From: Candidatus Harrisonbacteria bacterium
GTDB taxonomy: Bacteria > Patescibacteriota > Minisyncoccia > UBA6257 > UBA11618
DNA: 64,000 nt
Assembly: GCA_016867415.1 (NCBI GenBank)
Contig: VGJO01000001.1
Location: 80,052 to 144,051 of the forward strand
Direction: 5' to 3'
Shown: piece by piece, positions 1 to 52,672 of the stretch
Position numbering within the stretch: position 1 is the first letter of the stretch
How the letters are laid out: each line of letters opens with the position of its first letter
The notes under the pieces: model-generated
Told to the model about the DNA's origin: nothing
Seen by the model: the letters and a program-made list of their open reading frames with translations, nothing else
The model's database searches: none
Program-made: the position numbers and the translations under genes

Positions 1-1331
1 ACATCTGGTTTGACTCTGGAAGCATGCCTCTCGCTTCCTGGCACTATCCTTTTGAAAATAAATCTCTTATTAATTCCGGCGAGCAGTATCCCGCCGACTA
101 CATCTGCGAAGCGATGGACCAGACCCGTGGCTGGTTTTATACCCTTCTTTCTATCGCTACTCTTCTCAAAAAGCCGGCTCCTTTCAAAAACGTAATTTCT
201 GTTGGTCTTATCCTCGATAAAAACGGCGAGAAGATGAGTAAGTCAAAAGGGAATGTGGTTAGCCCCTGGGAGCTCAGTGATAAGTATGGTGTCGACGCTC
301 TTCGTTTTTATCTCTATTCCATCAATCCGCCCGGTGAAGCTAAGCGTTTTGATGAGACTGATCTTGGCAAAGTGGGGAATCGCATCATGACCACCCTTTA
401 TAACTCTTTTGTTTTCTATGATACCTACGCCCTGAAAAATATCGAGATTGATTGGAAAAAGGAAAAACTCACAAATATTCTTGATCGCTGGATCCTTGCC
501 CGCTTTGAGTCAGCGAGTGGTGAAATGACTAAACTTCTTGAAAAATATGACGTTCACGAAGCCACGAAAGTGATTGACGCTTTGATCGACGATCTTTCTC
601 GTTGGTACATTCGCCGCTCCCGCAAACGCTTCCAACAGCCGATAAAAAACGATCATCGCATCGCCTCCGCCGTCCTTTACCGGTCTCTCCTTACCCTCGT
701 AAAACTCATGGCGCCCTTCACTCCCTTCATAAGCGAAGCATTATATCAAGCTTTGAAAAAAGACTCCGATCCCGAGTCCGTCCATTTCCTCGACTATCCA
801 GTAGGGGATAAAACCCTTTTTAATAAAGAGCTCGTGAAGTCTATGGGTCTCATCCGCGATTATGCTTCCTCTGGTCTCTCCGCTCGGCAAAAGGCTGCTC
901 TCAAAGTCCGCCAACCTCTCTCTTCTTTGTCGCTAAAGATAAAAAAATCTCCTTTTAATAAAAAAGATGAAACAGCCCTCCTCGATATCCTTCGCGACGA
1001 GGTAAATGTGAAGAAAATTATTTTTTCCGCGGATCTTAAGGAAGAGGTTGTGCTTGATACTAAGCTCACCGAAAAACTGAAGCGCGAAGGTTACCTCCGT
1101 GAAATTTCCCGTCTTGTCCAAGGTCTTCGCCAAGAGGCCGGTTTTTCGCCCAAAGATCAAATTATCCTGTATGCGACTGGTGACGACTACCTGGTCGATC
1201 TTATGAAGTCGAGCAAGTCTTTAAAGAAATCAGTCGGCGCGGCCACAATAGAATTCCGTAAAGTAGCCGGAGTTAAAGCGAACGACGAACTCCTCCTCGA
1301 CAACTACCGCCTCTGGCTCGGAATAAAATAA
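1..1331 (+). CDS. ileS: isoleucyl-tRNA synthetase, C-terminal part (5' end outside window); type-2/eukaryote-like signature
   Basis: Frame open from window start. WFDSGSMP and DQTRGWFYTL motifs and the KMSKS loop (EKMSKSKGN) of class I aaRS. C-terminal anticodon-binding/editing-like region. Confidence 0.9.
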   Translation, partial: IWFDSGSMPLASWHYPFENKSLINSGEQYPADYICEAMDQTRGWFYTLLSIATLLKKPAPFKNVISVGLILDKNGEKMSKSKGNVVSPWELSDKYGVDALRFYLYSINPPGEAKRFDETDLGKVGNRIMTTLYNSFVFYDTYALKNIEIDWKKEKLTNILDRWILARFESASGEMTKLLEKYDVHEATKVIDALIDDLSRWYIRRSRKRFQQPIKNDHRIASAVLYRSLLTLVKLMAPFTPFISEALYQALKKDSDPESVHFLDYPVGDKTLFNKELVKSMGLIRDYASSGLSARQKAALKVRQPLSSLSLKIKKSPFNKKDETALLDILRDEVNVKKIIFSADLKEEVVLDTKLTEKLKREGYLREISRLVQGLRQEAGFSPKDQIILYATGDDYLVDLMKSSKSLKKSVGAATIEFRKVAGVKANDELLLDNYRLWLGIK

Positions 1332-2347: not shown

Positions 2348-2607
2348 ACAATTACCTTCGATTGTATCAACTATCCCCTCCATCATCAAATAAGGATTTT
2401 TCTCTGGCATTACGAAGTTCATAAGATGCCCTCCTCCTCGCGCAGAATTTTTGTCCCTATGACGAGGAGAAAGCAAGTATTGCGAGGAGGCATACATAAT
2501 CGGTATGTTGACGAGCAAAAGGAGCTTTCGACAATGTCAGAGGGAAAAAAGACAAGCGCTTAAAAAAACCAAAAGTAAAAGTTATTTTTTGATTGAGTTA
2601 ATTAAGC

Positions 2608-4350
2608 TTATACCTCAATCACTACGGGCAATATCATTGGCCTTCGTTTGGTTTTTTTAAATAAAAAGGAACCAATCTGTTCGCGAATTACTGTCTTCAC
2701 ATAATCCGACTCCGGATCTTGTCCTTGCACCCGCTCCATCACTGATCGGATCTTGCGTCGGATCTCATCCATCATCTCCTTACTTTCTTTGAGATAAATA
2801 AAGCCGCGGGAAATAATATCTGGATTTTTAAGGAGGCGGCCATTGTGCTTGTCAATCGTCGCAATGATCACGAGCATTCCTTCCTGAGAGAGAAGGATGC
2901 GATCTCGTAGCACCACTTCACCGACGTCTCCTACGCCGAGGCCATCCACCATCACGTAGTAGCTATCGATCGTCTCGCCGGTAATCATTGCTTTGTTTTC
3001 TTCGAGCTCCGCCACGTGTCCATTATCGAGAAGTAAGACATTATCTTTAGGGATTCCGCATTTTACCGCTAGCTCTCTATTCGCCGCTCGCTTAAAGAAG
3101 TAGCCATGAGTCGGAATCATAAACTTTGGCTTGATAAGTTTGATCGCACTTATAAGTTCATCCGCCGGCGCGTGTCCGGAAGAGTGAATATCAATATCCT
3201 TTGACTGAAAGACTCTCGCTCCCTGCCGAGTAAGATTGTCCTTCAAATTCTGCACCCCCCGCTCATTACCTGGAATAATTGAGGATGATAGGACGAAAGT
3301 GTCGCCTGGTTTAGTCTGTAGTATTTTATGCTCGCCGTTTGCAATCCGCATGAGCGAAGCATTTGATTGTCCTTGGGCGCCTGTACAGAAAATGATTACT
3401 TTTTCATCCTTATATTTATTAATCTCCTCAATCGGGATAATCGTATCCTTGGGGAATTTCATATAACCCATGTTTTGGGCGATCTGAATATTCGTCTTCA
3501 TTGAGTAGCCGTCAATAAAGACTTTTCGTTTCAGTTTAATAGCGATCTTAATCATTTCACGCAAGCGGGTAAGGAGCGAAGCAAATGTCGAGACGATAAT
3601 TCTTCCTGACGCTTCATCAAAAAGTATTTCTAAATTCTTTTCCACGAGCCGCTCCGACACGGTCTTACCGGGGATATCCGCGTTCGTACTGTCGATGAGA
3701 AGAGTGTGCACTCCCATCTTCCCAATCCGCTCGAAGTCATCAAGCCCTATCGGATTATCATCATGGTCGTAATCAATCTTAAAGTCGGTAAAGTGGACGA
3801 TATTGCCAATCGGCGTCTTAAGAATTGTCCCAATCGTATCCGGTACTGTGTGATCAAGCGTAAAAAACTCTGCTTGGAAATATTTTCCAAATGACACTTT
3901 ATCGCCCGGATTCACCACCATTGCGTCGAGTTTTGGTAAGTTCCGGAATTCTTCATGGCGCTTCGCCACCATTTCTTTGGTAATTGGCGCCATGTAGACC
4001 GTCGGATTGCCGAGCTTCGGCAAGACGTAGGGGATAGCGCCTGTGTGATCATAGTGGCCGTGGGTAATAATGAGCGCCCGGATTTTGTGCTTGTTGCGTT
4101 CCAGGTAATTGACGTTTGGAATGATAAAGTCGATACCCGGCGTCGTTTCCTCGGGAAATTGGAGACCTGCGTCAATGATTACAATTTCGTCATCATACTC
4201 AAAAAAGCACATGTTCCGACCGATTTCTTCAAAACCACCCAAAGGGGCAAAACGCATTCGCTTCTTGCCATCTTGAGGTGGTGCCACTCTTTCTTTTACG
4301 CCATTTTCCCGATCCCGAGAAAACGACCTTCTGTTGTTTTTATGTTCCAT
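2608..4350 (-). CDS. rnj: ribonuclease J (metallo-beta-lactamase/beta-CASP)
   Basis: HGHYDHTGAIPY (HxHxDH) motif, PLGGFEEIGRNM N-terminus and beta-CASP region typical of RNase J. Length 580 aa. Confidence 0.88.
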   Translation of the reverse strand: MEHKNNRRSFSRDRENGVKERVAPPQDGKKRMRFAPLGGFEEIGRNMCFFEYDDEIVIIDAGLQFPEETTPGIDFIIPNVNYLERNKHKIRALIITHGHYDHTGAIPYVLPKLGNPTVYMAPITKEMVAKRHEEFRNLPKLDAMVVNPGDKVSFGKYFQAEFFTLDHTVPDTIGTILKTPIGNIVHFTDFKIDYDHDDNPIGLDDFERIGKMGVHTLLIDSTNADIPGKTVSERLVEKNLEILFDEASGRIIVSTFASLLTRLREMIKIAIKLKRKVFIDGYSMKTNIQIAQNMGYMKFPKDTIIPIEEINKYKDEKVIIFCTGAQGQSNASLMRIANGEHKILQTKPGDTFVLSSSIIPGNERGVQNLKDNLTRQGARVFQSKDIDIHSSGHAPADELISAIKLIKPKFMIPTHGYFFKRAANRELAVKCGIPKDNVLLLDNGHVAELEENKAMITGETIDSYYVMVDGLGVGDVGEVVLRDRILLSQEGMLVIIATIDKHNGRLLKNPDIISRGFIYLKESKEMMDEIRRKIRSVMERVQGQDPESDYVKTVIREQIGSFLFKKTKRRPMILPVVIEV

Positions 4351-4454
4351 TATTGTTTTTATAATTTTTTATTTTTTGTAATATTTTTTTACTTTTTATT
4401 TCTAATGATGTTCATTAAGAATTTTTCTCCGAAGCCGCTAGAAATGTGGTATTC

Positions 4455-4586
4455 GGAAAATTCTTGAGGATTTTTCATCGAGTCCGAGGCGCTTTCTCTT
4501 TTGCGACTAAGGTGTACATAAGGAGTACTCCGCGGGAGAAAAAGAGGAAGGAACAAAGGAATCGATGAAAAAGACCAAGAATTTTG
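4455..4586 (+). repeat. tRNA-adjacent variant of the dispersed structured repeat family
   Basis: Shares aggatttttc-gag, gagtactc palindrome and gggagaaaaa...aaaagaccaa blocks with the copy at 14703-14837 and with the main family. Confidence 0.55.
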
Positions 4587-4669
4587 TGCCCCCAAGAGGA
4601 CTTGAACCTCTACAGGATTTCTCCCACAAGTACCTGAAACTTGCGCGTCTGCCATTTCGCCATGGGGGC
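4587..4669 (-). tRNA. tRNA-Leu (anticodon CAG), type II long variable arm, CCA not encoded
   Basis: Manual fold: acceptor GCCCCCA/TGGGGGC, 3-bp D stem, anticodon stem CAAGT/ACTTG with loop TTCAGGT, long variable arm, T stem AGAGG/CCTCT with TTCAAGT loop. Confidence 0.85.
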
Positions 4670-4687
4670 TGTTTGTTTATGTAATGC

Positions 4688-6373
4688 TCATTTTTGAAAA
4701 ACTCTTGCTGTTTTTTGATACCAATCCGCTACCCGAGAAAATCGTTCCCGTGGTTCCTGAATAAAGAAGGAAAGTGAAGGAATGGTGCTTTTATTCATAA
4801 AGTAGTAGAAATCTGGGGAAAAGAGAAAGAGTACCGGCAAGTCTTTTTGAATATTTTCTTGGACTTGCTTGAGTTTTTCCTCTCGTCGCTTTTCGTTTGT
4901 ATCATTTTTAAGTGAGGTAAGAAGCGTATCTACCTGTGGATTACTATAGAGAGCCAGGTTTGATCCTGGATGCACTCTATTATCCGAATGAAAGAAAGGG
5001 AGAAGATCAGGATTTTTTCTCATCTCTATTCCATAGAGCAGTGCCTCGTACTCTCTTGGTTTTATTATCTCCGCAAGTATCTTCTGAGATTCGATCGGCC
5101 GCAAGGCCACTTCAAAGCCAATTGCTTGATAATTCTTTGCAAGGAGCTCTACTGTTTCTTTCAGGAATCCTATTTCCGGGTAGGTAATAGTGAGTTGTAA
5201 GCGTGTAAGCGTCTTACCTTCTACTTTCATTCTGCCATTTTTTTCGTCCTTTTTAAAGCCCGCTTCATCAAGGAGTTTGTTGGCTTGCTCAAGAGAAAAT
5301 TCCTGCTTTTCCAAACCTTTCAAAAAACCTTTTACATTTGCCCCGATCGGTCCCACGCTTACTCGCGCTGAATTCTGGAAAATCTTTTCAACAATTTCTT
5401 CTCTGTTTGTTGCAAATAATAATGCCTTCCGTACATTCACATTTTGTAGGACCGGATTTTTTACCTGATTAAAAAAGAGCGCAAATGATCGCGGCATCGT
5501 GATAGCAAAACTTTCTTGATCAACGGTAATTTCTTTTTCTGCTTGCGGGTTATAAGTTCCATAGCCATCAATCTCTCGTCGCTGGAAAGCGGCAATTGCC
5601 TCCATCTCACTTGTGTAATATCGGAAAGAAAAATCAGTGATATTTGGCTTTCGCTCTGCAAATGCCTTATTAACTGCAAGCCTCACCTCTTTGATGAAGC
5701 CATCCTTTTCAGTAACCACCTCTTTTACTGTGTATGGGCCATAACCGATAGGGGAAAGATTATAGCTTGATAGCCGGAGATTAGGTACCGGAATACTTTC
5801 AAAGACATGCGCTGGGGCTACTCGTAAATCCTGGAGAATCTCAAGAAAATATGGTTTAGTAGTCCCGAGACTAAAACGTGCTTCATCCTCATTAATTTTT
5901 TCTACTGCCACATTATGCCACCGGCTTCGTTCCGTATGATTTGCGTCTGGATTTTGCATCGTCTTCACGGTAAAGATGAGATCTTTAGCGGTGATCGGCG
6001 CCCCATCAGAAAATCTTGCTCCTTTCTTAAGTTTTACTAAATAATTTTTTCCATTTTCTGAAATATCAATCGTCTCCGTGATAGTCGAAAGTCCAGGAAA
6101 GATGATTTCAATAAGATCTCGATCCGCTTGAGCCCCACTCCCTAAAAGGGGATTAATAAATACTGGTTGTCCCACCACTCCCTCAGTAAAACTCCCTCCC
6201 TCTCGTGGGGCTTCATAAGTAATATGAAAATATCCGGAGATAAGAATAAAGAGGAGTGCTAAGATAGCCGTCACTCCCGTCCCAAAGATCACCCTACGCT
6301 CGAGTGGGGTGAGGTGTCGCATTGTTGTAGAAAGGAGATGAAACACGTTGAGAAAAGAAGTTCGCCTCTGCAA
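4688..6373 (-). CDS. ABC transporter substrate-binding protein, family 5 (peptide/nickel type), membrane-anchored
   Basis: N-terminal TM helix and size and motifs of SBP_bac_5 (ARFSDGAPITAKDL...). An alternative start at MRHLTPLE is possible. Confidence 0.55.
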   Translation of the reverse strand: MQRRTSFLNVFHLLSTTMRHLTPLERRVIFGTGVTAILALLFILISGYFHITYEAPREGGSFTEGVVGQPVFINPLLGSGAQADRDLIEIIFPGLSTITETIDISENGKNYLVKLKKGARFSDGAPITAKDLIFTVKTMQNPDANHTERSRWHNVAVEKINEDEARFSLGTTKPYFLEILQDLRVAPAHVFESIPVPNLRLSSYNLSPIGYGPYTVKEVVTEKDGFIKEVRLAVNKAFAERKPNITDFSFRYYTSEMEAIAAFQRREIDGYGTYNPQAEKEITVDQESFAITMPRSFALFFNQVKNPVLQNVNVRKALLFATNREEIVEKIFQNSARVSVGPIGANVKGFLKGLEKQEFSLEQANKLLDEAGFKKDEKNGRMKVEGKTLTRLQLTITYPEIGFLKETVELLAKNYQAIGFEVALRPIESQKILAEIIKPREYEALLYGIEMRKNPDLLPFFHSDNRVHPGSNLALYSNPQVDTLLTSLKNDTNEKRREEKLKQVQENIQKDLPVLFLFSPDFYYFMNKSTIPSLSFFIQEPRERFSRVADWYQKTARVFQK

Positions 6374-6976: not shown

Positions 6977-7035
6977 AGCTAACTAATTATAATTCATTAA
7001 AAATAATTTTTTTTATATTGTATCTTAAAGGCCTA

Positions 7036-7156
7036 AGCGAAGTAGTTTTGAGCTTAGTTTCGTTCTTCTTTTTGAAAGTAAACTAAGAGCTACTAGGAAA
7101 GTCTATGAAGATTTTCCGGAGAAAAAAATAATGAAAATAAGGCAAAAGCATGAGCG
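7036..7156 (+). repeat. copy of dispersed structured intergenic repeat (divergent copy)
   Basis: agcgaagtagttttgag...ggagaaaaaaataatgaaaat...aaaagcatgagcg aligns with the family consensus. Confidence 0.55.
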
Positions 7157-7447
7157 CTACTCAAGTAATCTTGCAACACGCTCTAATTCTTGCTCAACTA
7201 AAGAACTATCATAATCCCCACTATGTACTGACGCCCCCTCATAGCTTGGTCGCTTCTGATCCAGGTGAAGAGAAAGAAAAAGTTTCCCTTCGGCCACCCG
7301 CGTATACATATGAAACTTCGGATACTCCATTCTGGAGAGTCGTCGCACGAAGCTCGTCTCCGCCCCTTTCTGCCTGTCATAGGCATACCCCGCCCGCCGC
7401 ATAAACACCTGCAAATTTTCTCGAAAACCCTCCACCATCTTTTTCAT
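7157..7447 (-). CDS. hypothetical protein
   Basis: 96-aa ORF with non-repetitive composition, in tandem with gpmI. No recognisable motif. Confidence 0.35.
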   Translation of the reverse strand: MKKMVEGFRENLQVFMRRAGYAYDRQKGAETSFVRRLSRMEYPKFHMYTRVAEGKLFLSLHLDQKRPSYEGASVHSGDYDSSLVEQELERVARLLE

Positions 7448-9217: not shown

Positions 9218-9329
9218 TTTACTCTTGACTACCTACTATCTTCTTAAACCGAGTCATTACTTCTATTATAGTTTCTATTATATTATGTAGTAAGGAAGGC
9301 TTGATTTCACTAATACCCAATAAAAAGCA

Positions 9330-9412
9330 CAGGATTTTTCGAGGAAATTTTGTTTTTTCTTGTGAGTAAGCGCCGGAGCATACTAAAAATAAGCTCGTAG
9401 ACACCTAATACT
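9330..9412 (+). repeat. copy (5'-truncated subtype) of dispersed structured repeat
   Basis: caggatttttcgagga...gcgccggagcatactaaaaataagctcgtagac aligns with the 22118-22253 copy. Confidence 0.5.
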
Positions 9413-9540
9413 CTCAATTCTCTAAGGGCTATAGATCCTAGGTATTCTCCGGGAAATAAAAAAATAGAAAGTTATCGAAAAAGACCAGCTCTTAATTGAT
9501 AGAAAAAATCGTTAATATCAAATGTCTATTTTTAACTACT

Positions 9541-11096: not shown

Positions 11097-11227
11097 TTGC
11101 GCTCTCCACGCGAAGTAATCTTAGATAGAGTCTACGATTTATTTTTGAGGAAAGGCCTGGAGCATACTAAGAGCTGGGCATATGAGGACTTTCTGGAGAA
11201 AAAACGGGAAAATTCGCCAAAAAGAAA
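11097..11227 (+). repeat. copy of dispersed structured intergenic repeat
   Basis: cacgcgaagtaatcttag...tacgatttattttt-gagga...ggagcatactaag...ggagaaaaaacgggaaaattcgccaaaaag. Confidence 0.6.
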
Positions 11228-11232
11228 AGCTT

Positions 11233-11265
11233 TCTAGTAAATAAAAAATCCGAGAAAATTTCTCT
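11233..11265. terminator. bidirectional intrinsic terminator between rny and HU gene
   Basis: Stem tccgaga/tctcgga (7 bp, loop aaattt), flanked by an A-run upstream and a T-run downstream. Confidence 0.7.
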
Positions 11266-11286
11266 CGGATTTTTTATTTACTAGAT

Positions 11287-11941: not shown

Positions 11942-12012
11942 GCGGGCGTCGTATAGTGGTAGTACACGACCCTTCCAAGGTTGAGGTGGGAGTTCGATTC
12001 TCCTCGCCCGCT
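11942..12012 (+). tRNA. tRNA-Gly (anticodon UCC), CCA not encoded
   Basis: Manual fold: acceptor GCGGGCG/CGCCCGC, D stem GTAT/GTAC, anticodon stem CGACC/GGTTG with loop CTTCCAA, T stem GGGAG/CTCCT with TTCGATT loop, discriminator U. Confidence 0.85.
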
Positions 12013-13991: not shown

Positions 13992-14345
13992 ATGAAAAAA
14001 ACACCTTTATTAAATCAAGCTGGAGGTAACACTATCTTCTGGGTAGTCTTTGGCGTCCTCGTCATTGGTCTCGTCCTCATCTCATCCTCAAAACCATTAA
14101 TTAATCCTCAAGCAGAGGGATTTCCTGTTTCCACAGATCTAGAAAATTTTGTTTCACTTAATCCAGAAGATTGCCCAGAGGAACCTCTATTAGAAGCCAC
14201 TCCTGATCCTGCTGGTTCTGCTGGTTCTGCTGGTCCTGCTGCTGGTTCTGCTGCTGGTTCTGCTGGTTCTGCTGCTGGTTCTGCTGGTCCTGCTGCTGGT
14301 CCTGCTGCTGGTCCTGCTGAGATGGAGCTCCTCCGCCTCCCCTAA
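13992..14345 (+). CDS. small membrane-anchored protein with (A)GSAG(P) tandem repeat tail
   Basis: ATG with TM segment. C-terminal region encoded by gctggttct/gctggtcct tandem repeats. Confidence 0.5.
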   Translation: MKKTPLLNQAGGNTIFWVVFGVLVIGLVLISSSKPLINPQAEGFPVSTDLENFVSLNPEDCPEEPLLEATPDPAGSAGSAGPAAGSAAGSAGSAAGSAGPAAGPAAGPAEMELLRLP

Positions 14346-14350: not shown

Positions 14351-14378
14351 AAAAAAAACCGGTCTCCACCGGTTTTTT
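14351..14378. terminator. intrinsic terminator (usable on both strands)
   Basis: Stem aaccgg/ccggtt, loop tctcca, A8 upstream and T6 downstream. Confidence 0.65.
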
Positions 14379-14399: not shown

Positions 14400-14642
14400 T
14401 TAATCATTCAGGGGAAAATCACCTCCAATCCCGTCTCCATGATGAGAGTGAAAAATTCCGGAGGGATCTGAAAAGCCCCTCACTTTTTTCTGTTTGATCA
14501 GCATCACTAGCCGCGCTTTCTCTGCAAACGATCGAAAAGCACCCCCTCTGTCCGCCGTATCAAAATCAAATTCCCGTTCCGCGCTTACAATCGACCTATA
14601 TGGTCGCCGAGCCATATTCTGCAATCCAATAAATATCTTCAC
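14400..14642 (-). CDS. hypothetical protein
   Basis: 80-aa ORF between a terminator and a repeat. No motif. Confidence 0.3.
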   Translation of the reverse strand: MKIFIGLQNMARRPYRSIVSAEREFDFDTADRGGAFRSFAEKARLVMLIKQKKVRGFSDPSGIFHSHHGDGIGGDFPLND

Positions 14643-14702: not shown

Positions 14703-14837
14703 GTAAATTTCTGAGGATTTTTTTCCGAAGGGTTAGGCGTCTTTGAGCATTACGACCAAGATGTACAAAGGAGTACTTTGCGGGAGAAAACAGAAAAGGC
14801 AACAACGCCATTCGAAAAAAAAGACCAAAAAGATTAG
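14703..14837 (+). repeat. tRNA-adjacent variant of the dispersed structured repeat family
   Basis: Near-collinear with 4455-4586 (tgaggattttt...aaggagtact..gcgggagaaaa...aaaagaccaaaaag), immediately abutting the tRNA-Arg 3' end. Confidence 0.55.
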
Positions 14838-14909
14838 TGCCCCCTATAGGAATCGAACCTATATCAACAGCTTAGAAGGCTGCTGCTCTATCCATTGAGC
14901 TAAGGGGAC
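14838..14909 (-). tRNA. tRNA-Arg (anticodon UCU), CCA not encoded
   Basis: Manual fold: acceptor GTCCCCT/AGGGGGC, D stem GCTC/GAGC, anticodon stem GCAGC/GCTGT with loop CTTCTAA, T stem ATAGG/CCTAT with TTCGATT. Confidence 0.85.
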
Positions 14910-14922: not shown

Positions 14923-14993
14923 TCGGGCTGCCGAGATTTGAACTCGGACTAAATCCTCCCAAAGGACTCGTGCTGCCGTTACACTACAGCCCG
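14923..14993 (-). tRNA. tRNA-Pro (anticodon UGG), CCA not encoded
   Basis: Manual fold: acceptor CGGGCTG/CAGCCCG, D stem GTGT/GCAC, anticodon stem AGTCC/GGATT with loop TTTGGGA, T stem CCGAG/CTCGG with TTCAAAT. Confidence 0.85.
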
Positions 14994-16351: not shown

Positions 16352-16360
16352 TAAATAATA

Positions 16361-16389
16361 AAAATCCCCGAAATTTTTCGGGGATTTTT
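16361..16389. terminator. bidirectional intrinsic terminator between lepB and ftsK
   Basis: Stem tccccgaaa/tttcgggga with a 2-nt loop, A-run and T-run flanks. Confidence 0.75.
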
Positions 16390-16424
16390 ATTAAAAAATT
16401 AAGAAATCTTCCAAAAGTACAAGC

Positions 16425-18686
16425 TTATTCCTCATCAGTAGAGTCGTTACCTCCAACTTCAGCAAGCTTAGCAGTAATATCTAGCTTGAGGTATATTGGC
16501 GAATCATAATAAATCTCTCTTGGCTTTGCTCCTTCTCCTGGCCCAATCGCCCCCTTCTCTTCCATGATGTCGAGTAGTCGCGCCGCTCGGGCATAGCCTA
16601 CCTTCAATCGTCGCTGCAAGAGCGACGCTGACGCTTTCTTTGATTCGTAGACCACCGCGAGCGCCTGATCAAGCATCTCATCGTCATCGCCGCTTCCTTC
16701 ACTCCCACCGCCGTAATCATCAAAGTTTACATCTCTCCCTGTAGGCGCCCCAATTGCTTCCCCACCCATCGCATTCATCTGCTCCTTTGCCCCAGTGATA
16801 CTCACCTGCGTTTCTGGCGCTGCCTGATTATGCTCTCTGATAAATTCAGCCACCTCCCGGATTTCATCTTCAGAAATATACGCCCCCTGGATTCTTCGTG
16901 GCTTTGGAGAAGTTGAAGATACAAAAAGCATGTCCCCACCGCCCAAAAGCTTTTCCGCTCCAGCACTATCGAGAATGGTTCGTGAGTCAATTTGGGAAGC
17001 GGTCTGTAAAGCGATTCTGGTCGTAATATTAGCTTTAATAAGTCCGGTGATGACCTCTACCGACGGCCGTTGGGTGGCGAGCACGAGGTGAATGCCCGTC
17101 GCCCGCGCCATCTGTGCTAGCCGCACGATTGCCGCTTCGATCTCCCGTCCTGAAGTGGCCATTAAGTCTGCCAGTTCATCCACTATGAGTACTATGTATG
17201 GCAGTTTCTCCTCAGCTGATTTGTTGTAACTTCCAATATCTCTCGTACCCGCCCTCATAAGTGTCTCATAGCGCCGATCCATCTCCGCTACCGCCCAGCG
17301 AAACACATTCATTGATTTTTTATTGTCGGTCACGACTGGCGCGGCAAGGTGGGGGATACCATTATACACCGAGAGCTCTACTTTTTTCGGGTCAATCATG
17401 ATGAGTCGTAAAGTCTCCGGCGAATTTTTATAGAGTAGCGATATGATAAACGAGTGCACCAAAATAGACTTTCCCGAACCCGTCGATCCAGAGATGAGAC
17501 AATGAGGCATCTTCTCGATGTTTGCCTCAATTGGCTCGCCGTTCACATCTCGTCCGATAAGAAGTGCAAGAGGCCCAAGTTTCATAAAGTTCGGATAGGA
17601 GATGAGCGACCCGAGCCGCACTATCGCCGCTGTTTTGTTTGGCACCTCGATCCCGACGAGCGATTTCCCCGGAATCGGCGCCTCGATACGGATTGGGTGT
17701 GCTGCGAGCGCGAGTGATAGATCACTATTCAAGGCCGTGATCCTCGTGAGGCGCACACCTTCCGCCGGCTTCAAAGTATAGCGGGTCACCTTCGGTCCGA
17801 TATTGATCTCACCCATCTCTACATTGATTCCAAAGCTCTCGAGCGTCCGCTTGATGATATTTGCATTGGCCTTCAAGTCTCCCGCCGTAGGTTTTTCAAT
17901 CGTTGCTTTGAGTAAGTTAAGCGGTGGGGGAGTGTAGTTATGAAGGAGAGCTACTGGCGCCACATTTGGCCCATCAATAGGCACGGCTTCCATCTTATCC
18001 TTGGCAATTTTCACCTCAACCTCTTTTTTCTCCTCGGGTTTTTTAACTTCTTCTTTCTTTTCTTTTTCTTGTACCCCTGAAGAAAGTTCTTCTGCTTCAT
18101 CTGGTAATCCAGTCACCACTGGCTCTTCTTCAATAGTTGCCGCTTTCTTTCCTGGTAATTGTATTTTAAGAGGTATATTAAGGGTCATAAGAGCTGATGA
18201 GACAAGGACTACCGACCCCACCACCATCGCCGCCACATTCCCAAATGGCACCTCAATCATACCAAGTGCCTGCCCTAATAGCCCCGCCTTATCTGGAAAA
18301 GCCACGTCAATCATTGAGAGTAATGCCCCGGTAAATACCACTGCTCCTGCAAGCGATGGCCCCAAGACCACCATCTCTGCGGCGGTGAGAAACAAGCCCG
18401 AGACTACGAGCGCTACCAAAGGCAAAACATAATATCCCCAGCCCAATCCTTTATAAAGAAAAGAAAAAAGCGTCTCGCCCGCCGGCCCTGCCTGGTGAAA
18501 CATTGCAAGGAGTAAAATGATGGCTAAGCCAATAAGTACTATTCCTGATATGCTCTTTTTTACGTGAGCTGAAACCCAGGGCATCTCTTCTTTGCCTTCA
18601 TCATCCTCTTCTTCTCGCGCCTTTTTCTTCTTTTTTATCTCCTTTACCGCTTTTTTACTGGTTTCTTTTTGTTTTGTCCTGGGCAT
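16425..18686 (-). CDS. ftsK: DNA translocase FtsK/SpoIIIE
   Basis: N-terminal TM region, Pro/Glu-rich linker, Walker A GSTGSGKS and the FtsK motor domain. Confidence 0.88.
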   Translation of the reverse strand: MPRTKQKETSKKAVKEIKKKKKAREEEDDEGKEEMPWVSAHVKKSISGIVLIGLAIILLLAMFHQAGPAGETLFSFLYKGLGWGYYVLPLVALVVSGLFLTAAEMVVLGPSLAGAVVFTGALLSMIDVAFPDKAGLLGQALGMIEVPFGNVAAMVVGSVVLVSSALMTLNIPLKIQLPGKKAATIEEEPVVTGLPDEAEELSSGVQEKEKKEEVKKPEEKKEVEVKIAKDKMEAVPIDGPNVAPVALLHNYTPPPLNLLKATIEKPTAGDLKANANIIKRTLESFGINVEMGEINIGPKVTRYTLKPAEGVRLTRITALNSDLSLALAAHPIRIEAPIPGKSLVGIEVPNKTAAIVRLGSLISYPNFMKLGPLALLIGRDVNGEPIEANIEKMPHCLISGSTGSGKSILVHSFIISLLYKNSPETLRLIMIDPKKVELSVYNGIPHLAAPVVTDNKKSMNVFRWAVAEMDRRYETLMRAGTRDIGSYNKSAEEKLPYIVLIVDELADLMATSGREIEAAIVRLAQMARATGIHLVLATQRPSVEVITGLIKANITTRIALQTASQIDSRTILDSAGAEKLLGGGDMLFVSSTSPKPRRIQGAYISEDEIREVAEFIREHNQAAPETQVSITGAKEQMNAMGGEAIGAPTGRDVNFDDYGGGSEGSGDDDEMLDQALAVVYESKKASASLLQRRLKVGYARAARLLDIMEEKGAIGPGEGAKPREIYYDSPIYLKLDITAKLAEVGGNDSTDEE

Positions 18687-22013: not shown

Positions 22014-22117
22014 ATCTCGCCGCAGCTTTTCATAAAAGTGAATCCAAACGTATTTCTGTACTTAATTACCAAAAAATGTTTTAATCCAAAAAAATAAAAA
22101 TTTTTATCGGTGACTTA

Positions 22118-22253
22118 CGCCACGAAAGCGCAGGATTTTTGAGAAGAGTTTGGATTTTCTTTGTGAGCAGCGAACGGAGCATACTAGAACTTGAGTATGT
22201 GAGTACGAGACGCAGCAAAAAAATCAAGATCTTCTAAAAAATACAAGCTTATT
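22118..22253 (+). repeat. copy of dispersed structured intergenic repeat, ending 4 nt before the cysteine desulfurase start
   Basis: cgccacgaaagcgcaggatttttgag...gaacggagcatactagaacttgagtatgtgagtacgag...caaaaaaatcaag...acaagctt. Confidence 0.6.
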
Positions 22254-22256: not shown

Positions 22257-23489
22257 ATGGAAAAGAGAATCTATCTAGACTACGCCTCCTCCACCCCCCT
22301 CGACCCCCAAGTGTTGTCTGCCATGCAGCCTTATTTTTATAAGCTCTTCGGCAATCCCGGCTCTACCCACCGTGAAGGCCAAATCGCCTTCGCCGCCCTT
22401 GCTGAAGCACGCGAGATGATCTCTCTCGCTCTTGGCGCCGAGTGGAAAAACACCCTCTTTCTTCCCTCCGCGACCGAAGCCAATAATTTCATCCTCCGTG
22501 GCGCTCTATCGGTCTGGGGAAAGTCTCATCCTGGCATAATTCCCGAATATATCATTTCTCCCCTTGAGCACCCCTCGCTCATTGCTACTGCTAAGGATCT
22601 TGCGAGGGAAGGAAAAATTATTCTTCATTTTCTTAAAGTTACTGAAGCCGGTATTGTGGATTTTACCTCGCTCTCCCCCCTCCTTTCTCCTCGCACCTGC
22701 CTCATCGCTGTCCAAAGCGCCAACAGCGAGCTTGGTACCCTCCAGCCTATTCAAGAAATCGCCACTCTCATATCTTCTTATAAAGAATCTAAAAAAAATA
22801 ATAGTCATTCCGGACTTAGCACACCTCGCTCTAAGCGGGATCCGGAATCTATAAAAAATAATTCTTACCCGCTTTTTCACATCGACGCGGTCCAGTCTTT
22901 CCAATATTTCCCCATCACCCTTGCCGAATCCGGCGCGGATTCTATTATCATCTCTTCGCATAAGCTCTATGGTCCCAAAGGCGCTGCCGCGCTTTCTCTC
23001 AAAAATTCTTCTCTCTCCTCTCCTCTTCTTTTTGGCGACACTCGGGAATCCGGCCTTCGCTCCGGTACAGAAAATGTTCCATCTATAGTCGGTTTTGGTA
23101 AAGCCGTTGAACTTGCGGAAAAAAATCGGGCTAAGGAATCAAAAAGAATAAAAATTCTCCGAGATTTCCTTTGGGAAGGCCTTGCAAAAATCTATCCTCA
23201 TATAAAACTGAATGGAGACTTAGAACGCCGCCTGCCACATAATCTAAGCGTCTATTTTCCCGGCACCCCTTCAACCGATTTTATGATTGAGCTTGATATG
23301 CAAGGTATTGCCGTCTCCGCCGGCACTGCCTGCTCCGCTCGCGCTCTTACTCCGTCTCCTGTCCTTGAGATCCTTTATCCCGATTCCGACCGTCCCTATT
23401 CTTCCCTCCGCTTCACTCTTGGCCGACCAACCAAAAAATCCGACCTCGTAAGCGTCCTCAAAATCCTCAAAAACCGCAGGCCGAAATAA
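22257..23489 (+). CDS. cysteine desulfurase (class V aminotransferase, IscS/NifS family) with an internal low-complexity insertion
   Basis: N-terminal YLDYASSTP, SSHKLYGPKG (PLP-Lys), GTACSAR near the C-terminus. Confidence 0.8.
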   Translation: MEKRIYLDYASSTPLDPQVLSAMQPYFYKLFGNPGSTHREGQIAFAALAEAREMISLALGAEWKNTLFLPSATEANNFILRGALSVWGKSHPGIIPEYIISPLEHPSLIATAKDLAREGKIILHFLKVTEAGIVDFTSLSPLLSPRTCLIAVQSANSELGTLQPIQEIATLISSYKESKKNNSHSGLSTPRSKRDPESIKNNSYPLFHIDAVQSFQYFPITLAESGADSIIISSHKLYGPKGAAALSLKNSSLSSPLLFGDTRESGLRSGTENVPSIVGFGKAVELAEKNRAKESKRIKILRDFLWEGLAKIYPHIKLNGDLERRLPHNLSVYFPGTPSTDFMIELDMQGIAVSAGTACSARALTPSPVLEILYPDSDRPYSSLRFTLGRPTKKSDLVSVLKILKNRRPK

Positions 23490-23566
23490 TTTACTGTTTT
23501 TTTCTATTTGGCCGAAGGCCACGTGAGAAATTATGCAATCATAATTTATTTTGCGTCATAAAAAAT

Positions 23567-23590
23567 CCCCCACTCCGTACGGAGTGGGGG
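23567..23590 (-). terminator. hairpin with U-tract only on the minus strand
   Basis: Perfect palindrome cccccactccgtacggagtggggg. A-runs on the + strand on both sides, so the T-run follows it only when read on the minus strand. Confidence 0.4.
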
Positions 23591-24054
23591 AAAAAAGAAG
23601 TCAGAGAATAATAAGCCACTTTATCAAACATTATTATTTCTCTGGTCAAAGAAGAAAGCGCAGAAAAACCCTCCTAATTTTCACCTGATTCTCTTTCCAC
23701 GCTCAAAAAAGAAAGGTAAGGAAGAGGCGGAGTATTCTCTCACCCTTTGATATTTCCTTACCTTAATTTTAAAGAAGAGAGTGAAGAATTGTCCATTTTT
23801 TTCAATCCCAGCATCCTCCACTCTCAAATGCAAAGTTTTCAATGAATAACTATTATATACCATATAAATATATAGGAGTCAAAAAAATAAAAATCAATAA
23901 TGTTAATATATATGTATAAGCTAGATTTAAGAAGATTTTATTAAAAAATACTCGCTCTGCAAAAGCGCATAATTTTTGGACGAGTCTCCACTGGCAATTA
24001 GCTCTCTTAAACTAAAAAATAAAAGAATTAGTAAAAAAGAACTAAAATGAGCTA

Positions 24055-24170
24055 GATCAGCGAGGCTCCCCATTTCTTTTCGAGGAGCTACCGGAGCATA
24101 CTAAGGGAAGTCTGTAAGGAGATACCGCAGGAAAAAACGGGAAAATTCGCCAAAAAGACAAGCTTTTCAC
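24055..24170 (+). repeat. copy of dispersed structured intergenic repeat (5'-short)
   Basis: atttcttttcgaggagctaccggagcatactaagggaagtctgtaagg...ggaaaaaacgggaaaattcgccaaaaagacaagctt. Confidence 0.55.
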
Positions 24171-24442
24171 ATGAAGACAAAACCCACGCGCCCTTTTTTA
24201 TATTTCTAATATTTGAAGCCGAGATAAAAAATATACAGTTTGTAAAAATATAAATAATAAAGATCTAGTAATTCGTTTAAATGCAGAGAATGAAGTAAGA
24301 GAAAAGTTATTCTGCGAACCAGAAGCATCAATAAATACCAAGCCCTGTTACCCAACCCCGATTCGATTAACTAATCGAAAAAGAAAAGACAGAAAATCAT
24401 TTTCCCCTGTCTTTTCTTAAGTGATAAAACCAATTCCCTTCA

Positions 24443-24471
24443 TTGACTTTTGATATAAATTTTGCTAATGT
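24443..24471 (+). promoter_or_regulatory. sigma70-type promoter (TTGACT-17-TAATGT) upstream of clpB leader
   Basis: TTGACT 24443-24448, 17-nt spacer, TAATGT 24466-24471. The predicted transcript would carry the 24604-24723 repeat as a 5' leader. Confidence 0.45.
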
Positions 24472-24603
24472 ACATATACATTCAGACCTGAAAGTTTTTG
24501 AAGAAATGGACAAAAAAAGTAATACTAAATTAGTCTCTTAGAATTTTTCTTTTACATCTTATTTTACGTAAAAGCATAGGATATAAAGTCTTAGCACAAG
24601 CGT

Positions 24604-24723
24604 AAGCGAAGTAATTTTGGAGGGTATTTCGATTTTTCTTGAGAGTACGGGGCGGAGCATGCTAGGAAAGTCTGTGAGCACCGAACGGAACAAAAAATCG
24701 AAATGCACCCAAAAGTACGAGCG
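24604..24723 (+). repeat. copy of dispersed structured intergenic repeat, ending 10 nt before clpB ATG
   Basis: agcgaagtaattttggagggtatttcgattttt...ggagcatgctagg...caaaaaatcgaaatgcacccaaaagtacgagcg, with a compensatory tttcgattt/aaatcgaaa pair. Confidence 0.6.
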
Positions 24724-24733
24724 TAAAACACTA

Positions 24734-28980: not shown

Positions 28981-29158
28981 ACGCGAAGTAATTTTGAGTC
29001 GAGTTTACGATTTATTTCTGAGGACAAGCCCGGGAGCACTACTAAGAAAAAGGTATGTCGAAGGTATGGAGTACTCTCCGTACCGGAGATCTCGAGTGCT
29101 CTCGAGGTGAAGGACTTACCGGAAGAAAAAATCGCAAAATTGGCCAAAAGTACGAGCG
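28981..29158 (+). repeat. long variant (with ~55-nt internal insertion) of dispersed structured repeat
   Basis: acgcgaagtaattttgagtcgagtttacgattt...gggagcactactaag + insertion ggtatggagtactctccgtacc / ctcgagtgctctcgag + ggaagaaaaaatcgcaaaattggccaaaagtacgagcg. Confidence 0.6.
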
Positions 29159-29163
29159 CCTTA

Positions 29164-31035
29164 TCAGATGGATAGGTCGGGTCGGAGTAATTGCAACTTA
29201 CTCCTCAATCTTCCCAATTCCTTCTGATCCCCCTCCTCCATCGCAATCCGTGCCTGAATCTGGATAAATTCAATGCGAGTAGGCGAATAATCTTCCCCTG
29301 TTTTAGCAAGTGCTTTTGCTTTCTCACTATATTGCGGATTTTTTGTCGCTTCAAATGCCGCCATGTAGAGCAAGTTGTATATATAGTGATTTTTTATACC
29401 TGGATAGATCGTGGGCTCATACCATTTGTCCGCCATCCCTAGTACTCGGTTCATGAAGTTAGGATCTCGAGGAAGCGCCGGGTTTTCCTTTTGAGCCATT
29501 TGAATCGCATTTTGCAAAAAGAGGAAGAGACTACTTTCTAGCTCTGACTGCCCTACTACCGACTTATATTGCAATGCCTTCTCATAGTCATTCAGCGCTT
29601 GGTCTAAATTTTTCGCATTATAGACCGCCGATGTGATAAGGAGGACATTTTTTCGATAAATAGTGTAAGTGAGACCAAATCCAGTAAGGAGTAATAAGAC
29701 AATGACTGCCTGCCCTCCTGCTCGCGTAAAAGTTAGTTGTTTTCTTTGCGTCATAAGCTTAGAAAGAGCTGTTTCCTCAAGAAAGCCGGCGGTGTTTGCT
29801 GTGTAAAAAGCCAGGAAGAGAAAAAGCATGAGATACGTTGGCAAGATGGCAAAGATAGTCAGTCCCTGGATGATAAACATAAGCGGCATGATAAGAAAAA
29901 TAATCCGCCATATTCCCGAAGGAATCTTTTTTAAGCTCATATAGTAGGCGATAAAGATTCCAATATAAGCAAGAAGGAGAAGGATTCCCCCATTCATTAA
30001 TTCGTCAATAAAGATATTATGAGCCCGATCAAACCATGACTCTCTTCCAAAGTGATTGGGATTATAATACATATCAAAGACCGAAGGGAAACTCTCCGCT
30101 CCATACCCCAAAAGTGGTCGTTCTAAAAATCCTTGGTACGCTGATCCCCAGGTCCAAAAACGAGTATTAAATGCTTCTAGAATATTTCCTCCCTTTTCTG
30201 CTGAAACAAGAAAAAGTGAGCCAAAAGTAATAAAGCTAATAAGAAGGACTAAAAACGCATAGAAAAAAGTCTTTGCTTTTTTATTAAGCTTCTCGAAGTA
30301 ATAGAGATGAAGGTGGGGGATGAGAAGCAAGAGTCCGACTACGCCGCCAATTCCCACTGCCCCCAAAGCCGCTGTCGTCTTTGATCGGTAAAAAACGAAG
30401 ATCGCCCAAAGAGTGTACCAGGCAAGCATAGTCCAGGTTTTCACCGATTTTGTATTCTGACTCATCCAATAAAGGTAAAAGAAGATAAATATCATATAGC
30501 CTCCAAGATACGAGGCATTTCCTAATGTTCCTGCTACCTGTGAGGCACTTCCAATGAAAAAACTAGGTGCTATACCGAAAGCCTGCGCGGTCGCATAGAG
30601 CATCACATAGAGAGTCTCAATAAGGAGAAATGAGATGAGCCATTTCCAATGCTGTTTCGTTGTATAGGTGGAGATAAGAAGCACGTAAAAAGTCACATAG
30701 TGAATGATTTGAAATCCCCCTTCCGCCCGTTCAAAGTTAGACCAAAAAGAAAAACCTGGGTTGATTCCAGTAAGTGAAGTAAGGACATAAAAAAATGCAT
30801 ATGCAAGAACTGCGATCGAGACCGGATGCCTCAACCGTTCTTTGATGACTGTCCAGTACCCCGGATTATAAATGAGATAACTCAAGAGGCAAAAAAGGGC
30901 GATTTCCACCATCGATCGGAAATAGAGCGCCTTTCCGGTAATAAAGGGGAAGTACAAACCTCGGGTAACAAGGAGAAATGAAAGAAGTGCCGCCCCGGTA
31001 AAAATCCGCGCCGCTCTGATAAAAAAAGTATTCAT
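29164..31035 (-). CDS. Wzy_C (O-antigen ligase/PglL-like) polytopic membrane protein with C-terminal TPR-like domain
   Basis: About 11 TM segments, YNPNHFGRESWFDRAHNIFIDELMNGGILLLLAY loop motif typical of the Wzy_C family. C-terminal soluble helical repeats. Confidence 0.7.
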   Translation of the reverse strand: MNTFFIRAARIFTGAALLSFLLVTRGLYFPFITGKALYFRSMVEIALFCLLSYLIYNPGYWTVIKERLRHPVSIAVLAYAFFYVLTSLTGINPGFSFWSNFERAEGGFQIIHYVTFYVLLISTYTTKQHWKWLISFLLIETLYVMLYATAQAFGIAPSFFIGSASQVAGTLGNASYLGGYMIFIFFYLYWMSQNTKSVKTWTMLAWYTLWAIFVFYRSKTTAALGAVGIGGVVGLLLLIPHLHLYYFEKLNKKAKTFFYAFLVLLISFITFGSLFLVSAEKGGNILEAFNTRFWTWGSAYQGFLERPLLGYGAESFPSVFDMYYNPNHFGRESWFDRAHNIFIDELMNGGILLLLAYIGIFIAYYMSLKKIPSGIWRIIFLIMPLMFIIQGLTIFAILPTYLMLFLFLAFYTANTAGFLEETALSKLMTQRKQLTFTRAGGQAVIVLLLLTGFGLTYTIYRKNVLLITSAVYNAKNLDQALNDYEKALQYKSVVGQSELESSLFLFLQNAIQMAQKENPALPRDPNFMNRVLGMADKWYEPTIYPGIKNHYIYNLLYMAAFEATKNPQYSEKAKALAKTGEDYSPTRIEFIQIQARIAMEEGDQKELGRLRSKLQLLRPDLSI

Positions 31036-35934: not shown

Positions 35935-36021
35935 TATAACAGTAAGTCCTGTACTTAATCAAAAAAAAATGTTTTAATCTAATATTCCTAATACTTAATT
36001 TTTAAAGATTTTGCCCGTCGC

Positions 36022-36197
36022 CACGCGAAGTAATTTTGGATGGAGTTTGTGATTTCTTTCCGAGGAGCCGCCGCAACGTATAAATAAAAGGTATGTCGAA
36101 GGTACTTAGTACTCTAATACCGGAGATCTCGAGTACTCTCGAGGTGAAGAAGCTAGCACAGAAAAAACTGCGAAAATTCGCCAAAAAACAAGCTTAT
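36022..36197 (+). repeat. long variant (with internal insertion) of dispersed structured repeat, ending 3 nt before GT4 start
   Basis: ccacgcgaagtaattttggatggagtttgtgatttc... + insertion ggtacttagtactctaatacc / ctcgagtactctcgag + ...gaaaaaactgcgaaaattcgccaaaaaacaagctt. Confidence 0.6.
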
Positions 36198-44148: not shown

Positions 44149-44159
44149 ATAAATAATAT

Positions 44160-47715: not shown

Positions 47716-47747
47716 AAATATCATAAGTAGGTAATCGTCCTCAGTTC

Positions 47748-52651: not shown

Positions 52652-52672
52652 TAAAATAAAGATTAGCTTGAT

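Follow-up and report, generated by a model that had tools for sequence, protein, structure and literature searches.

As is generally known, the ERIC (IRU) sequences of the Enterobacteriaceae and Vibrio are imperfect palindromes of ~127 bp that lie in transcribed intergenic DNA. The Correia/NEMIS elements of Neisseria and other MITEs (RPE, BOX, and RUP) are short non-autonomous repeats with inverted termini that have undergone lineage-specific expansions and are sometimes fused to gene ends, and they fold as RNA hairpins that can be cleaved by RNase III. Hairpin repeats are also found in organelles in which tRNAs punctuate the transcripts; such hairpins reportedly invade short spacers beside tRNAs (sponge mtDNA; PMC2800124). 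Where mRNA decay depends on RNase J and RNase Y, a stem located right at the 5' terminus of an mRNA protects it from 5'-to-3' degradation (PMC3997798).

Here we analyze two hairpins that lie directly beside tRNA genes in a Candidatus Harrisonbacteria bacterium, a member of the CPR. The window, which is the whole stretch of DNA that was analyzed, comprises 64,000 nucleotides of contig VGJO01000001.1 (assembly GCA_016867415.1) and is a segment of bacterial chromosome that encodes RNase J, RNase Y, FtsK, ClpB, iPGM, an ECF sigma factor, and many glycosyltransferases. It also holds a family of hairpins of ~125 nt, here called the main family. Like ERIC sequences, the hairpins of both groups are ~125 to 130 nt long, palindromic over the whole element, intergenic, flush with genes, and probably co-transcribed, so that any effect would depend on orientation. 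Unlike ERIC sequences, with which they share no sequence similarity, they belong to another phylum, every copy in ~70 kb has the same DNA orientation and abuts the gene boundary to its right, and the pair described here stands at tRNA 3' ends. The features listed above for Correia/NEMIS elements and other MITEs are shared as well, but here there is one long stem instead of terminal inverted repeats around a core, no TA target duplication or other target-site duplication is visible at the ends of either tRNA-flanking hairpin or of the main copies, and no cognate transposase was identified, the window encoding neither a transposase nor an integrase. The two tRNA-flanking hairpins are short, non-coding, and imperfectly palindromic over their whole length, as is required of the MITE/ERIC-Correia class, and ORFs across them match only themselves. 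Another property of that class, absence from orthologous sites, was seen in seven relatives, with the caveat of a mini-hairpin in one of them (L035).

The likeness to organelle hairpin repeats lies in the layout, with a hairpin in a short spacer beside a tRNA that is itself lodged between protein genes (solute-binding protein [SBP]-tRNA-Leu-RNase J); here, however, the setting is a bacterial chromosome, the stems are much longer, and no evidence marks the hairpins as a processing signal. A stable stem 1 to 2 nt from a predicted RNA 5' end, in an organism that encodes RNase J and RNase Y, would also recall 5' stem-loop mRNA stabilizers such as the B. subtilis aprE leader, although the stem in question is far longer and folds less well on the relevant strand. 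REP/BIME sequences with a RAYT were rejected as a class, the units here being single hairpins of ~125 to 180 nt and not the often clustered palindromes of 20 to 40 nt, with no Y1 transposase in the window. In a search of Rfam 15, only the tRNAs reached threshold, and a permissive search returned weak miRNA-precursor-like hairpin matches (E > 1). Nothing specific was found in the literature on CPR hairpin repeats or on MITEs at tRNA ends.

Results

Two related hairpins at tRNA 3' ends

The 3' flanks of tRNA-Leu(CAG) and tRNA-Arg(UCU) (Table 1) were related well beyond chance, in agreement with the original prediction, which had described them as collinear over ~130 nt. MAFFT aligned the flanks over ~135 to 148 nt with 81 to 83% column identity, blastn gave 73.6% identity over 148 nt (E = 3e-14), and the local alignment had a z of ~20 relative to dinucleotide shuffles, none of 300 of which matched the observed score. 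The similar unit is a single imperfect palindrome of ~130 nt, present as two diverged copies (74 to 83% identity, depending on the comparison), both of which are hairpins and both of which begin exactly at position +2 after the tRNA. The flanks had been said to end exactly at the tRNA 3' end, and the adjacency is indeed precise, with one C between discriminator and hairpin at both loci. Thus, the base of the tRNA-Leu hairpin (AAAATTCTTG/CAAGAATTTT) extends to 4585, and a lone C parts it from the discriminator at 4587; the junction beside tRNA-Arg is the same (GGGGGCA followed by the C). The distal limit of the similarity coincides with the base of the palindrome, and the proximal limit falls at or inside the tRNA end, where GGGGGCAC is common to both tRNAs.

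The RNA MFE of the tRNA-Leu hairpin was -52.8 kcal/mol on the + strand (z = -6.9) and -40.0 on the minus strand, and that of the tRNA-Arg hairpin, the more decayed of the two copies, was -32.6 kcal/mol (z = -3.0) and -25.3, respectively. When the structure of the tRNA-Leu hairpin was laid on the alignment of the pair, ~70% of its pairs held in the tRNA-Arg hairpin. Among the differences at paired positions, four were compensatory double changes, while the three one-sided changes each yield G.U on the + strand. The flanks had further been described as antisense to the tRNA, a term of limited meaning for a near-palindrome, and orientation is signaled solely by the + strand, which, with its G.U pairs, folds better.

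The tRNA-Leu hairpin was identical in six assemblies, and the tRNA-Arg region was identical in the eight assemblies that cover it, save for one mismatch in L031; no presence/absence polymorphism was seen among these near-identical sequences. Besides a Lake Tanganyika metagenome contig (Ga0194121_10000231), several Logan assemblies also contain the DNA of the window.

Table 1. Positions of the tRNA-flanking hairpins, their neighboring genes, and the members of the main hairpin family in the window
Feature	Position	Strand	Remarks
tRNA-Leu hairpin	4457-4585	.	129 nt; 1 nt (C at 4586) past the tRNA-Leu discriminator
tRNA-Arg hairpin	14706-14836	.	131 nt; 1 nt (C at 14837) past the tRNA-Arg discriminator
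tRNA-Leu(CAG)	4587-4669	-	ARAGORN and Rfam; no CCA encoded, C after discriminator
tRNA-Arg(UCU)	14838-14909	-	ARAGORN and Rfam; no CCA, C after discriminator
tRNA-Pro(UGG)	14923-14993	-	ARAGORN and Rfam; clustered with tRNA-Arg on the minus strand and upstream of it
tRNA-Gly	11942-12012	+	ARAGORN and Rfam
RNase J gene	2608-4350	-	Pfam; next gene downstream of tRNA-Leu and its hairpin
71-aa ORF	14400-14615	-	Downstream of the tRNA-Arg hairpin; called in L025, L026, and L027
Canonical bidirectional intrinsic terminator	14353-14378	.	Closes the minus-strand tRNA-Pro/Arg-hairpin-ORF unit
Main-family copy	2441-2560	+	Between two minus-strand genes; nhmmer E = 5e-9, covariance model R1 E = 0.02
Main-family copy	7035-7157	+	Overlaps, at its right end, the stop codon of a 93-aa ORF on the minus strand; R1, 100 bits
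Main-family copy with apical insertion	9325-9491	+	Upstream of RNase Y; carries the words AGGATTTTTCGAG and GAAAAAGACCA common to the tRNA-flanking hairpins
Main-family copy	11108-11232	+	Abuts the terminator at 11233-11285
Main-family copy	22126-22250	+	6 nt before the ATG at 22257
Main-family copy	24045-24165	+	Within a 1.1-kb non-coding stretch upstream of ClpB
Main-family copy	24604-24724	+	8 nt before the likely ClpB start (24733)
Main-family copy with apical insertion	28981-29160	+	3 nt from a minus-strand stop codon (gene 29164-31035)
Main-family copy with apical insertion	36023-36197	+	2 nt before the ATG at 36200
Main-family copy	44026-44150	+	Fills a 138-nt spacer between two plus-strand genes; R1, 136 bits
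Main-family copy	47747-47870	+	Touches a minus-strand stop codon (gene 47871-48929) at its right end; found with R1
Main-family solo right-end fragment (CCAAAAGTACAAGCTTA)	16393-16426	+	Last bases are the FtsK stop codon
Main-family fragment	15702-15791

Gene context and syntenic relatives

None of the four tRNAs in the window (Leu, Arg, Pro, and Gly) encodes CCA, and all four have a C after the discriminator. On the minus strand, the two hairpin loci follow the same order: tRNA, hairpin, an A/T-rich spacer of about 60 to 105 nt, and a co-directional protein gene. The spacer is 106 nt between the tRNA-Leu hairpin and RNase J, while at the other locus ~90 nt separate the hairpin from the 71-aa ORF, which had no Pfam match and could be assigned to no family. 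A terminator-like site (G+C-rich stem plus T-run) was found at neither hairpin, and on this ground they were rejected as intrinsic (Rho-independent) terminators; canonical terminators are used elsewhere in the window (e.g., 11233-11285, 14353-14378, and 16356-16393).

Seven relatives were fetched via RNase J homologues (55 to 72% identity); the RNase J of the nearest GTDB representative searched was only 55% identical. All seven keep the order SBP-tRNA-Leu(cag)-RNase J on one strand, with gaps of 5, 14, 34, ~50, 52, 100, and 125 nt between tRNA-Leu and RNase J. No sequence resembling the hairpin pair was found in this spacer in any of them, and the covariance model of the main family matched none of their loci. 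One relative (L017) also has the tRNA-Pro/tRNA-Arg cluster, and the 3' flank of its tRNA-Arg is unrelated both to that in the window and to the flank of its own tRNA-Leu. Additionally, the tRNA-Gly and the tmRNA of the window's own genome have no flank of this type. Because seven syntenic relatives have neither the hairpin nor the main family, the hairpin is a lineage-specific addition in this Harrisonbacteria lineage and does not belong to the conserved parts of tRNA expression.

These absences, together with the lack of a T-run, speak against the earlier suggestion of a tRNA 3'-processing or terminator module, at least as a conserved device, and a conserved tRNA 3'-trailer processing element was rejected on the absence from the relatives, the tRNA-Gly, and the tmRNA. 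A narrower proposal is that a lineage-specific functional trailer was recruited and selected at position +2 of these tRNAs as a processing or insulating device, be it an RNase III entry site, an exonuclease block, or a terminator/attenuator without a U-tract before RNase J and the 71-aa ORF. The identical +2 junction at two independent loci and the repeated layout of tRNA, hairpin, spacer, and gene would suit this proposal, as would the maintenance of the hairpin, with its four compensatory changes, despite ~20 to 25% divergence; the conservation of the "punctuated" tRNA-Leu-RNase J arrangement moreover implies that processing at this site matters. However, the proposal faces the same absences as the conserved device and dispenses with the T-run that terminators elsewhere in the window use, the G.U asymmetry favors the opposite strand, and the tRNA-Arg copy is partly decayed, so that we consider it doubtful.

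Copy number and extent of the homology

A search of ~100 kb of DNA from this organism yielded two copies of the tRNA-flanking hairpin; neither the window nor the fetched loci nor the spurious ORFs that had been called contained a third. A called 68-aa ORF over the hairpin matched only itself, and a HMMER search of 1.84 billion representatives with an ORF over the hairpin returned only itself and one low-complexity match; as a search for further copies, this ORF-based approach provides weak negative evidence. The pattern of the pair had no match in viral contigs.

Two known copies, with a similarity that enters the tRNA 3' end and includes the shared GGGGGCAC, are also what a one-off copying event between two tRNA loci would leave. 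Such an event, a gene conversion or ectopic recombination entailing neither mobility nor function, could have been seeded in the similar tRNA 3' ends (TCCT.T.GGGGGCAC). We regard it as unlikely, since the shared tRNA segment of ~8 to 14 nt is too short for ordinary homologous recombination, the homology ends distally at the base of the palindrome and not at an arbitrary point, and a divergence of ~20 to 25% with compensatory changes implies that the copies have long been maintained independently. The position of the distal end also makes co-duplication of tRNA flanks, which had been put forward earlier, improbable as a plain segmental duplication, while gene conversion between the two flanks could still have taken place. 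A tRNA-targeting integrative element (tyrosine-integrase att) was rejected because a blastn query that included 14 nt of the tRNA detected no repeat of this segment on the distal side of the hairpin and the window holds no integrase.

The main hairpin family

The covariance model (R1) and a profile HMM identified 11 strong copies of the main family between 2.4 and 47.9 kb of the window. All 11 lie on the + strand, irrespective of the direction of the flanking genes; two of them (2441-2560 and 7035-7157) and both tRNA-flanking hairpins are situated among minus-strand genes. A further copy in the + orientation lies ~5.6 kb past the end of the window (L018, 288-411). Structured hairpins of ~125 to 130 nt occupy about one quarter of the intergenic spacers. 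In the main family, 86.6% of cells were paired, compared with 46 to 58% when the partners were slid, and 18 of 31 pairs carried changes on both sides, values that none of 500 shuffles reached, with an alignment that was fitted to the model and so favors structure somewhat. A comparison of left and right flanks for a conserved target or an extra module yielded only one 31-nt block, common to 22056-22089 and 35949-35982.

A metagenome scan with the pattern of the main-family 5' arm gave stretches with further copies from outside the window region (L008, L010, and L011, of which L008 and L010 are the same sequence) and one stretch (L012) that matched the window itself at 99.9%, while neither the model nor blastn matched L007 or L009. 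The six short metagenome stretches with the arm pattern contained no tRNAs. Among GTDB representative genomes, a set from which the window organism is absent, the pattern had no matches, and the matches in viral contigs were due to chance, with none confirmed by R1.

Placement and strand bias

The hairpins lie flush with the gene or tRNA on their right. Over 13 elements, the median right-hand gap was 4 nt (9 nt or less in 10 of the 13) and the median left-hand gap was 104 nt, a placement never reproduced in 100,000 random placements within the same spacers (P < 1e-5); some start codons were chosen by the analyst, which may have shrunk those gaps, and stop codons and tRNA ends leave no such ambiguity. 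The right boundary is a plus-strand start codon in some cases (22257 and 44160, and the likely starts 24733 and 36200) and a minus-strand stop codon in others (7157, 29164, and 47871, with the fragment at 16393-16426 supplying the FtsK stop), and for the tRNA-Leu and tRNA-Arg hairpins, where the gap is 1 nt, it is the tRNA 3' end. Since the boundaries include start codons, stop codons, and tRNA ends, the contact with tRNAs is best seen as one instance of a general gene-boundary habit and not as specific to tRNAs. Two tRNA contacts in ~15 elements, with three tRNA loci in ~65 gene boundaries, are not significant alone; that both members of the distinct pair stand at tRNAs is nominally unusual, at n = 2.

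It is conceivable, and in our estimation quite unlikely, that the pair and the main family together represent a CPR-specific, strand-fixed, and structure-selected "gene-boundary" element that sits flush on starts, stops, and tRNA ends and defines RNA ends, capping mRNA 5' ends at tRNA-punctuated operons. If this were so, the hairpin would cap the mRNA of RNase J itself, and the arrangement could be an autoregulatory loop.

The + strand folded better in 12 of 13 copies, including both tRNA-flanking hairpins, and G.U cells outnumbered A.C cells by 51 to 23. The uniform orientation of the main copies, whatever the gene direction, hints at a DNA-strand-specific process, for which the evidence from GC skew is ambiguous. 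A GC-skew minimum at ~52 kb, taken as a replication origin that sets the orientation of the elements, was set aside as unsafe, the minimum coinciding with a low-GC polysaccharide island; the L018 copy lies beyond this minimum and is also + oriented. The polarity of the A/T arms was dropped as an orientation marker because it is symmetric under reverse complementation. A functional + strand, either as an RNA antisense to the tRNA 3' region or as DNA that is single-stranded while it is replicated (and might then be used by, for example, a strand-specific HUH-type transposase), would account for the folding bias, the G.U excess, the one-sided changes in the pair, and the single orientation of the 11 strong copies and the L018 copy, but it is highly improbable in view of the lack of a sigma-70-like promoter directing + strand transcription into either tRNA-flanking hairpin, the lack of an HUH/Y1 transposase in the window, a G.U excess that may be inherited from a master copy, and a GC skew that would make the + strand the leading-strand template and not the exposed lagging template.

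Relation of the pair to the main family

The original prediction treated the tRNA-flanking hairpins as variants of the main family on account of shared blocks. The blocks are real; they are A/T-rich words of 8 to 11 nt that are best matched in the divergent copy at 9325-9491. The kinship drawn from them, however, failed in every comparison. Pairwise scores of both hairpins against all 11 main copies were at the level of shuffles (z < 3), and a profile HMM of the 11 copies had no match to either hairpin at E ≤ 100 (nhmmer). The same HMM, run against the two flanks and shuffles with an E cutoff of 1e9, gave no score for either flank. The covariance model gave 12.2 bits (E = 2.8) for the tRNA-Leu hairpin, less than the wrong-strand scores of true family members, and nothing for the tRNA-Arg hairpin. 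Thus, neither pairwise comparison nor the profile HMM nor the covariance model reveals sequence homology between the pair and the main family. What the two groups do have in common is architecture, namely, a long hairpin, better folding of the + strand, and a flush right end, with the difference that the basal stem is longer and more perfect in the tRNA-flanking hairpins. The best reading is that the pair is of the same kind as the main family, that is, non-coding and non-autonomous palindromic intergenic repeats of the MITE/ERIC/Correia type.

Discussion

We favor, with about even confidence, the view that the two hairpins are lineage-specific MITE/ERIC-like palindromic repeats that settled at a tRNA 3' boundary, with the consequences of co-transcription set out below. 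A palindromic-repeat origin is suggested because the unit of similarity is the palindrome, orthologous sites do not contain it, and a neighboring hairpin family has the same placement. A palindrome of ~130 nt would, in this lineage only, have been inserted right after the 3' ends of two tRNA genes that encode no CCA. The hairpin repeats that fill about a quarter of the spacers appear to rest on whatever gene boundary lies to their right in + coordinates, and at these two loci that boundary would by happenstance be a tRNA 3' end. Their spread, now or formerly, may have depended on a trans-acting enzyme encoded outside the window. Of the explanations originally offered, tRNA genes as insertion targets therefore comes closest in one respect: insertion beside the tRNA fits best, given the palindromic unit, the empty orthologous sites, and the flush rule, while the targeting of tRNAs as such rests on two cases. 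With n = 2, to call the pair a "repeat family" or "mobile" is an extrapolation, and this counts against the mobile-repeat reading, as do the lack of a visible target-site duplication, of a transposase in the window, and of presence/absence variation among the near-identical assemblies.

As for the consequences, each hairpin is probably co-transcribed with its tRNA and the downstream gene, because the minus-strand order at both loci is tRNA, hairpin, spacer, and co-directional gene. The tRNA-Leu is very probably excised from a longer transcript, since in the relatives hardly any spacer separates it from the genes on either side. A cut at the 3' end of the tRNA would then leave a downstream RNA that starts with one free C followed by a very stable stem of 129 nt, and in an organism with RNase J and RNase Y this stem could serve as a 5' protective cap or as an insulator between tRNA and mRNA. 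Insulation or stabilization of the downstream RNA would, in our view, be the most likely consequence of the hairpin, because in organisms with these RNases a 5' stem blocks 5'-to-3' decay. Such an effect would be a tolerated or mildly useful by-product and would not be required for tRNA maturation. That the + strand folds better, and is favored by the one-sided substitutions, speaks against selection acting on the minus-strand (tRNA-sense) transcript and weakens a mechanism at the RNA level.

To our knowledge, CPR/Patescibacteria genomes are small and have not been noted for repeat expansions. Here, about one in four spacers holds a hairpin of 125 to 130 nt with compensatory pairing, and the hairpins run in one direction and are flush on gene boundaries, two tRNA 3' ends among them. 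A functional placement would provide a handle on how RNA ends are defined around tRNA-punctuated operons in uncultured organisms, in a clade in which tRNA-Leu is wedged between genes throughout; if the hairpins are merely selfish DNA, they would document an unusual and strongly directional bias of insertion or retention. There is a small chance that the hairpins of both groups are genuine RNA-end-defining devices in a CPR bacterium, and the claim of a tRNA-linked module, with two copies in one lineage, is weak.

The closest relative (L035) carries a mini-hairpin with a 7-bp stem (AAATTTC-CACAA-GAAATTT) three bases past its tRNA-Leu, and the distal arm of this mini-hairpin matches the distal end of the tRNA-flanking hairpins at 10 of 12 positions. 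The mini-hairpin may be the remnant of a deletion, or else a precursor, and the base of the hairpin may be older than assumed.

Orientation, structure and placement of the hairpin repeats

All 11 copies of the main hairpin family in the window (2441-47870), together with a further copy in the same organism's DNA beyond the window end (L018, 288-411), share a single DNA orientation, regardless of the direction of the flanking genes. The family, for which Rfam gave no match to the ~125-nt hairpin, showed strong stem covariation, with compensatory changes at 18 of 31 pairs, and its + strand contained 51 G.U cells versus 23 A.C cells. Placement relative to genes was strongly asymmetric when gaps were measured for 13 hairpin elements, among them the two diverged tRNA-flanking palindromes (T-Leu and T-Arg): in 10 of the 13, a gap of 0 to 9 nt separated the right end (+ coordinate) from the adjacent boundary, be it a start codon, a stop codon or the end of a tRNA, and the median gap was 4 nt on the right versus 104 nt on the left. 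Random placement of the 13 elements gave such asymmetry with P<1e-5.

Further copies and neighboring blocks

Additional main-family copies were found on two metagenome contigs from the same lake, with 82 to 85% identity to the window copies and co-oriented inside each contig. Solo right-end motifs of the family also occurred in the window; the one at 16393 directly follows a terminator and provides the TAA stop codon of FtsK (minus strand).

Hairpin-related features in the window and on metagenome contigs
Feature	Location	Sequence or context
Solo main-family right-end motif	16393-16426	CCAAAAGTACAAGCTTA
Solo main-family right-end motif	2568-2582	AAACCAAAAGTAAAAG
Terminator-like hairpin	23575-23595	gene-poor stretch upstream of ClpB
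Main-family copies	24045-24165, 24604-24724	gene-poor stretch upstream of ClpB
Main-family copies	L008 4343-4469, 5311-5435	metagenome contig
Main-family copies	L011 419-575, 2593-2682	metagenome contig
Shared 31-34-nt block	22056-22089, 35949-35982	CTGTACTTAAT..AAAAAATGTTTTAATC

The two occurrences of the shared block, which are 88 to 90% identical, follow terminators and lie about 40 nt (35 to 40) upstream of two main-family copies; the block may be a promoter or accessory module. The stretch upstream of ClpB (23489-24733) is gene-poor over about 1.1 to 1.2 kb, and neither an ORF of at least 100 aa besides the ClpB frame nor a known RNA family was found there.

tRNA loci and possible hairpin relics

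The order solute-binding protein, tRNA-Leu(CAG), RNase J (window 4350-6322) was kept at all seven relatives' loci (L013, L014, L016, L017, L035, L036 and L037), with spacers down to 0 to 14 nt among Harrisonbacteria-like relatives, suggesting that tRNAs punctuate a polycistronic transcript much as they do in mitochondria. None of the window's four tRNA genes encodes CCA, and each has a C right after the discriminator (4586, 12013, 14837 and 14922), as in most relatives; L017 encodes the full CCA at both tRNA-Leu and tRNA-Arg.

In the closest relative (L035, 645-675), a 7-bp mini-hairpin, AAATTTC-CACAA-GAAATTT, lies 3 nt past tRNA-Leu. Between the distal arm of this mini-hairpin and the distal end of the T hairpins, 10 of 12 positions agree; the mini-hairpin could be what a deletion left behind or, alternatively, the palindrome's seed. 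In the window, AAGAATTTTTCTCCGAAG (4418-4435), 22 nt left of T-Leu, resembles the T-Arg 5' arm (88% over 17 nt, not significant) and may have been left by an older copy.

Other features of the window and relatives

By precomputed Pfam hits, the isoleucyl-tRNA synthetase at L001 13020-16496, whose C-terminal part corresponds to window 24-1331, carries an inserted histidine-phosphatase (His_Phos_1) domain; this insertion is also present in L014 and absent from L016 and L017. The 117-aa protein encoded by ORF 13992-14345 matched no family; a tandem 9/12-nt repeat (14191-14325) gives it a low-complexity (P/S)AAGSAG tail. GC skew becomes positive at ~52 kb and falls to about zero by ~58 kb. The polysaccharide-biosynthesis island (window 52000-64000 and L018) has a low GC content (33 to 36%); it contains no hairpin repeats, and the main family resumes beyond it.
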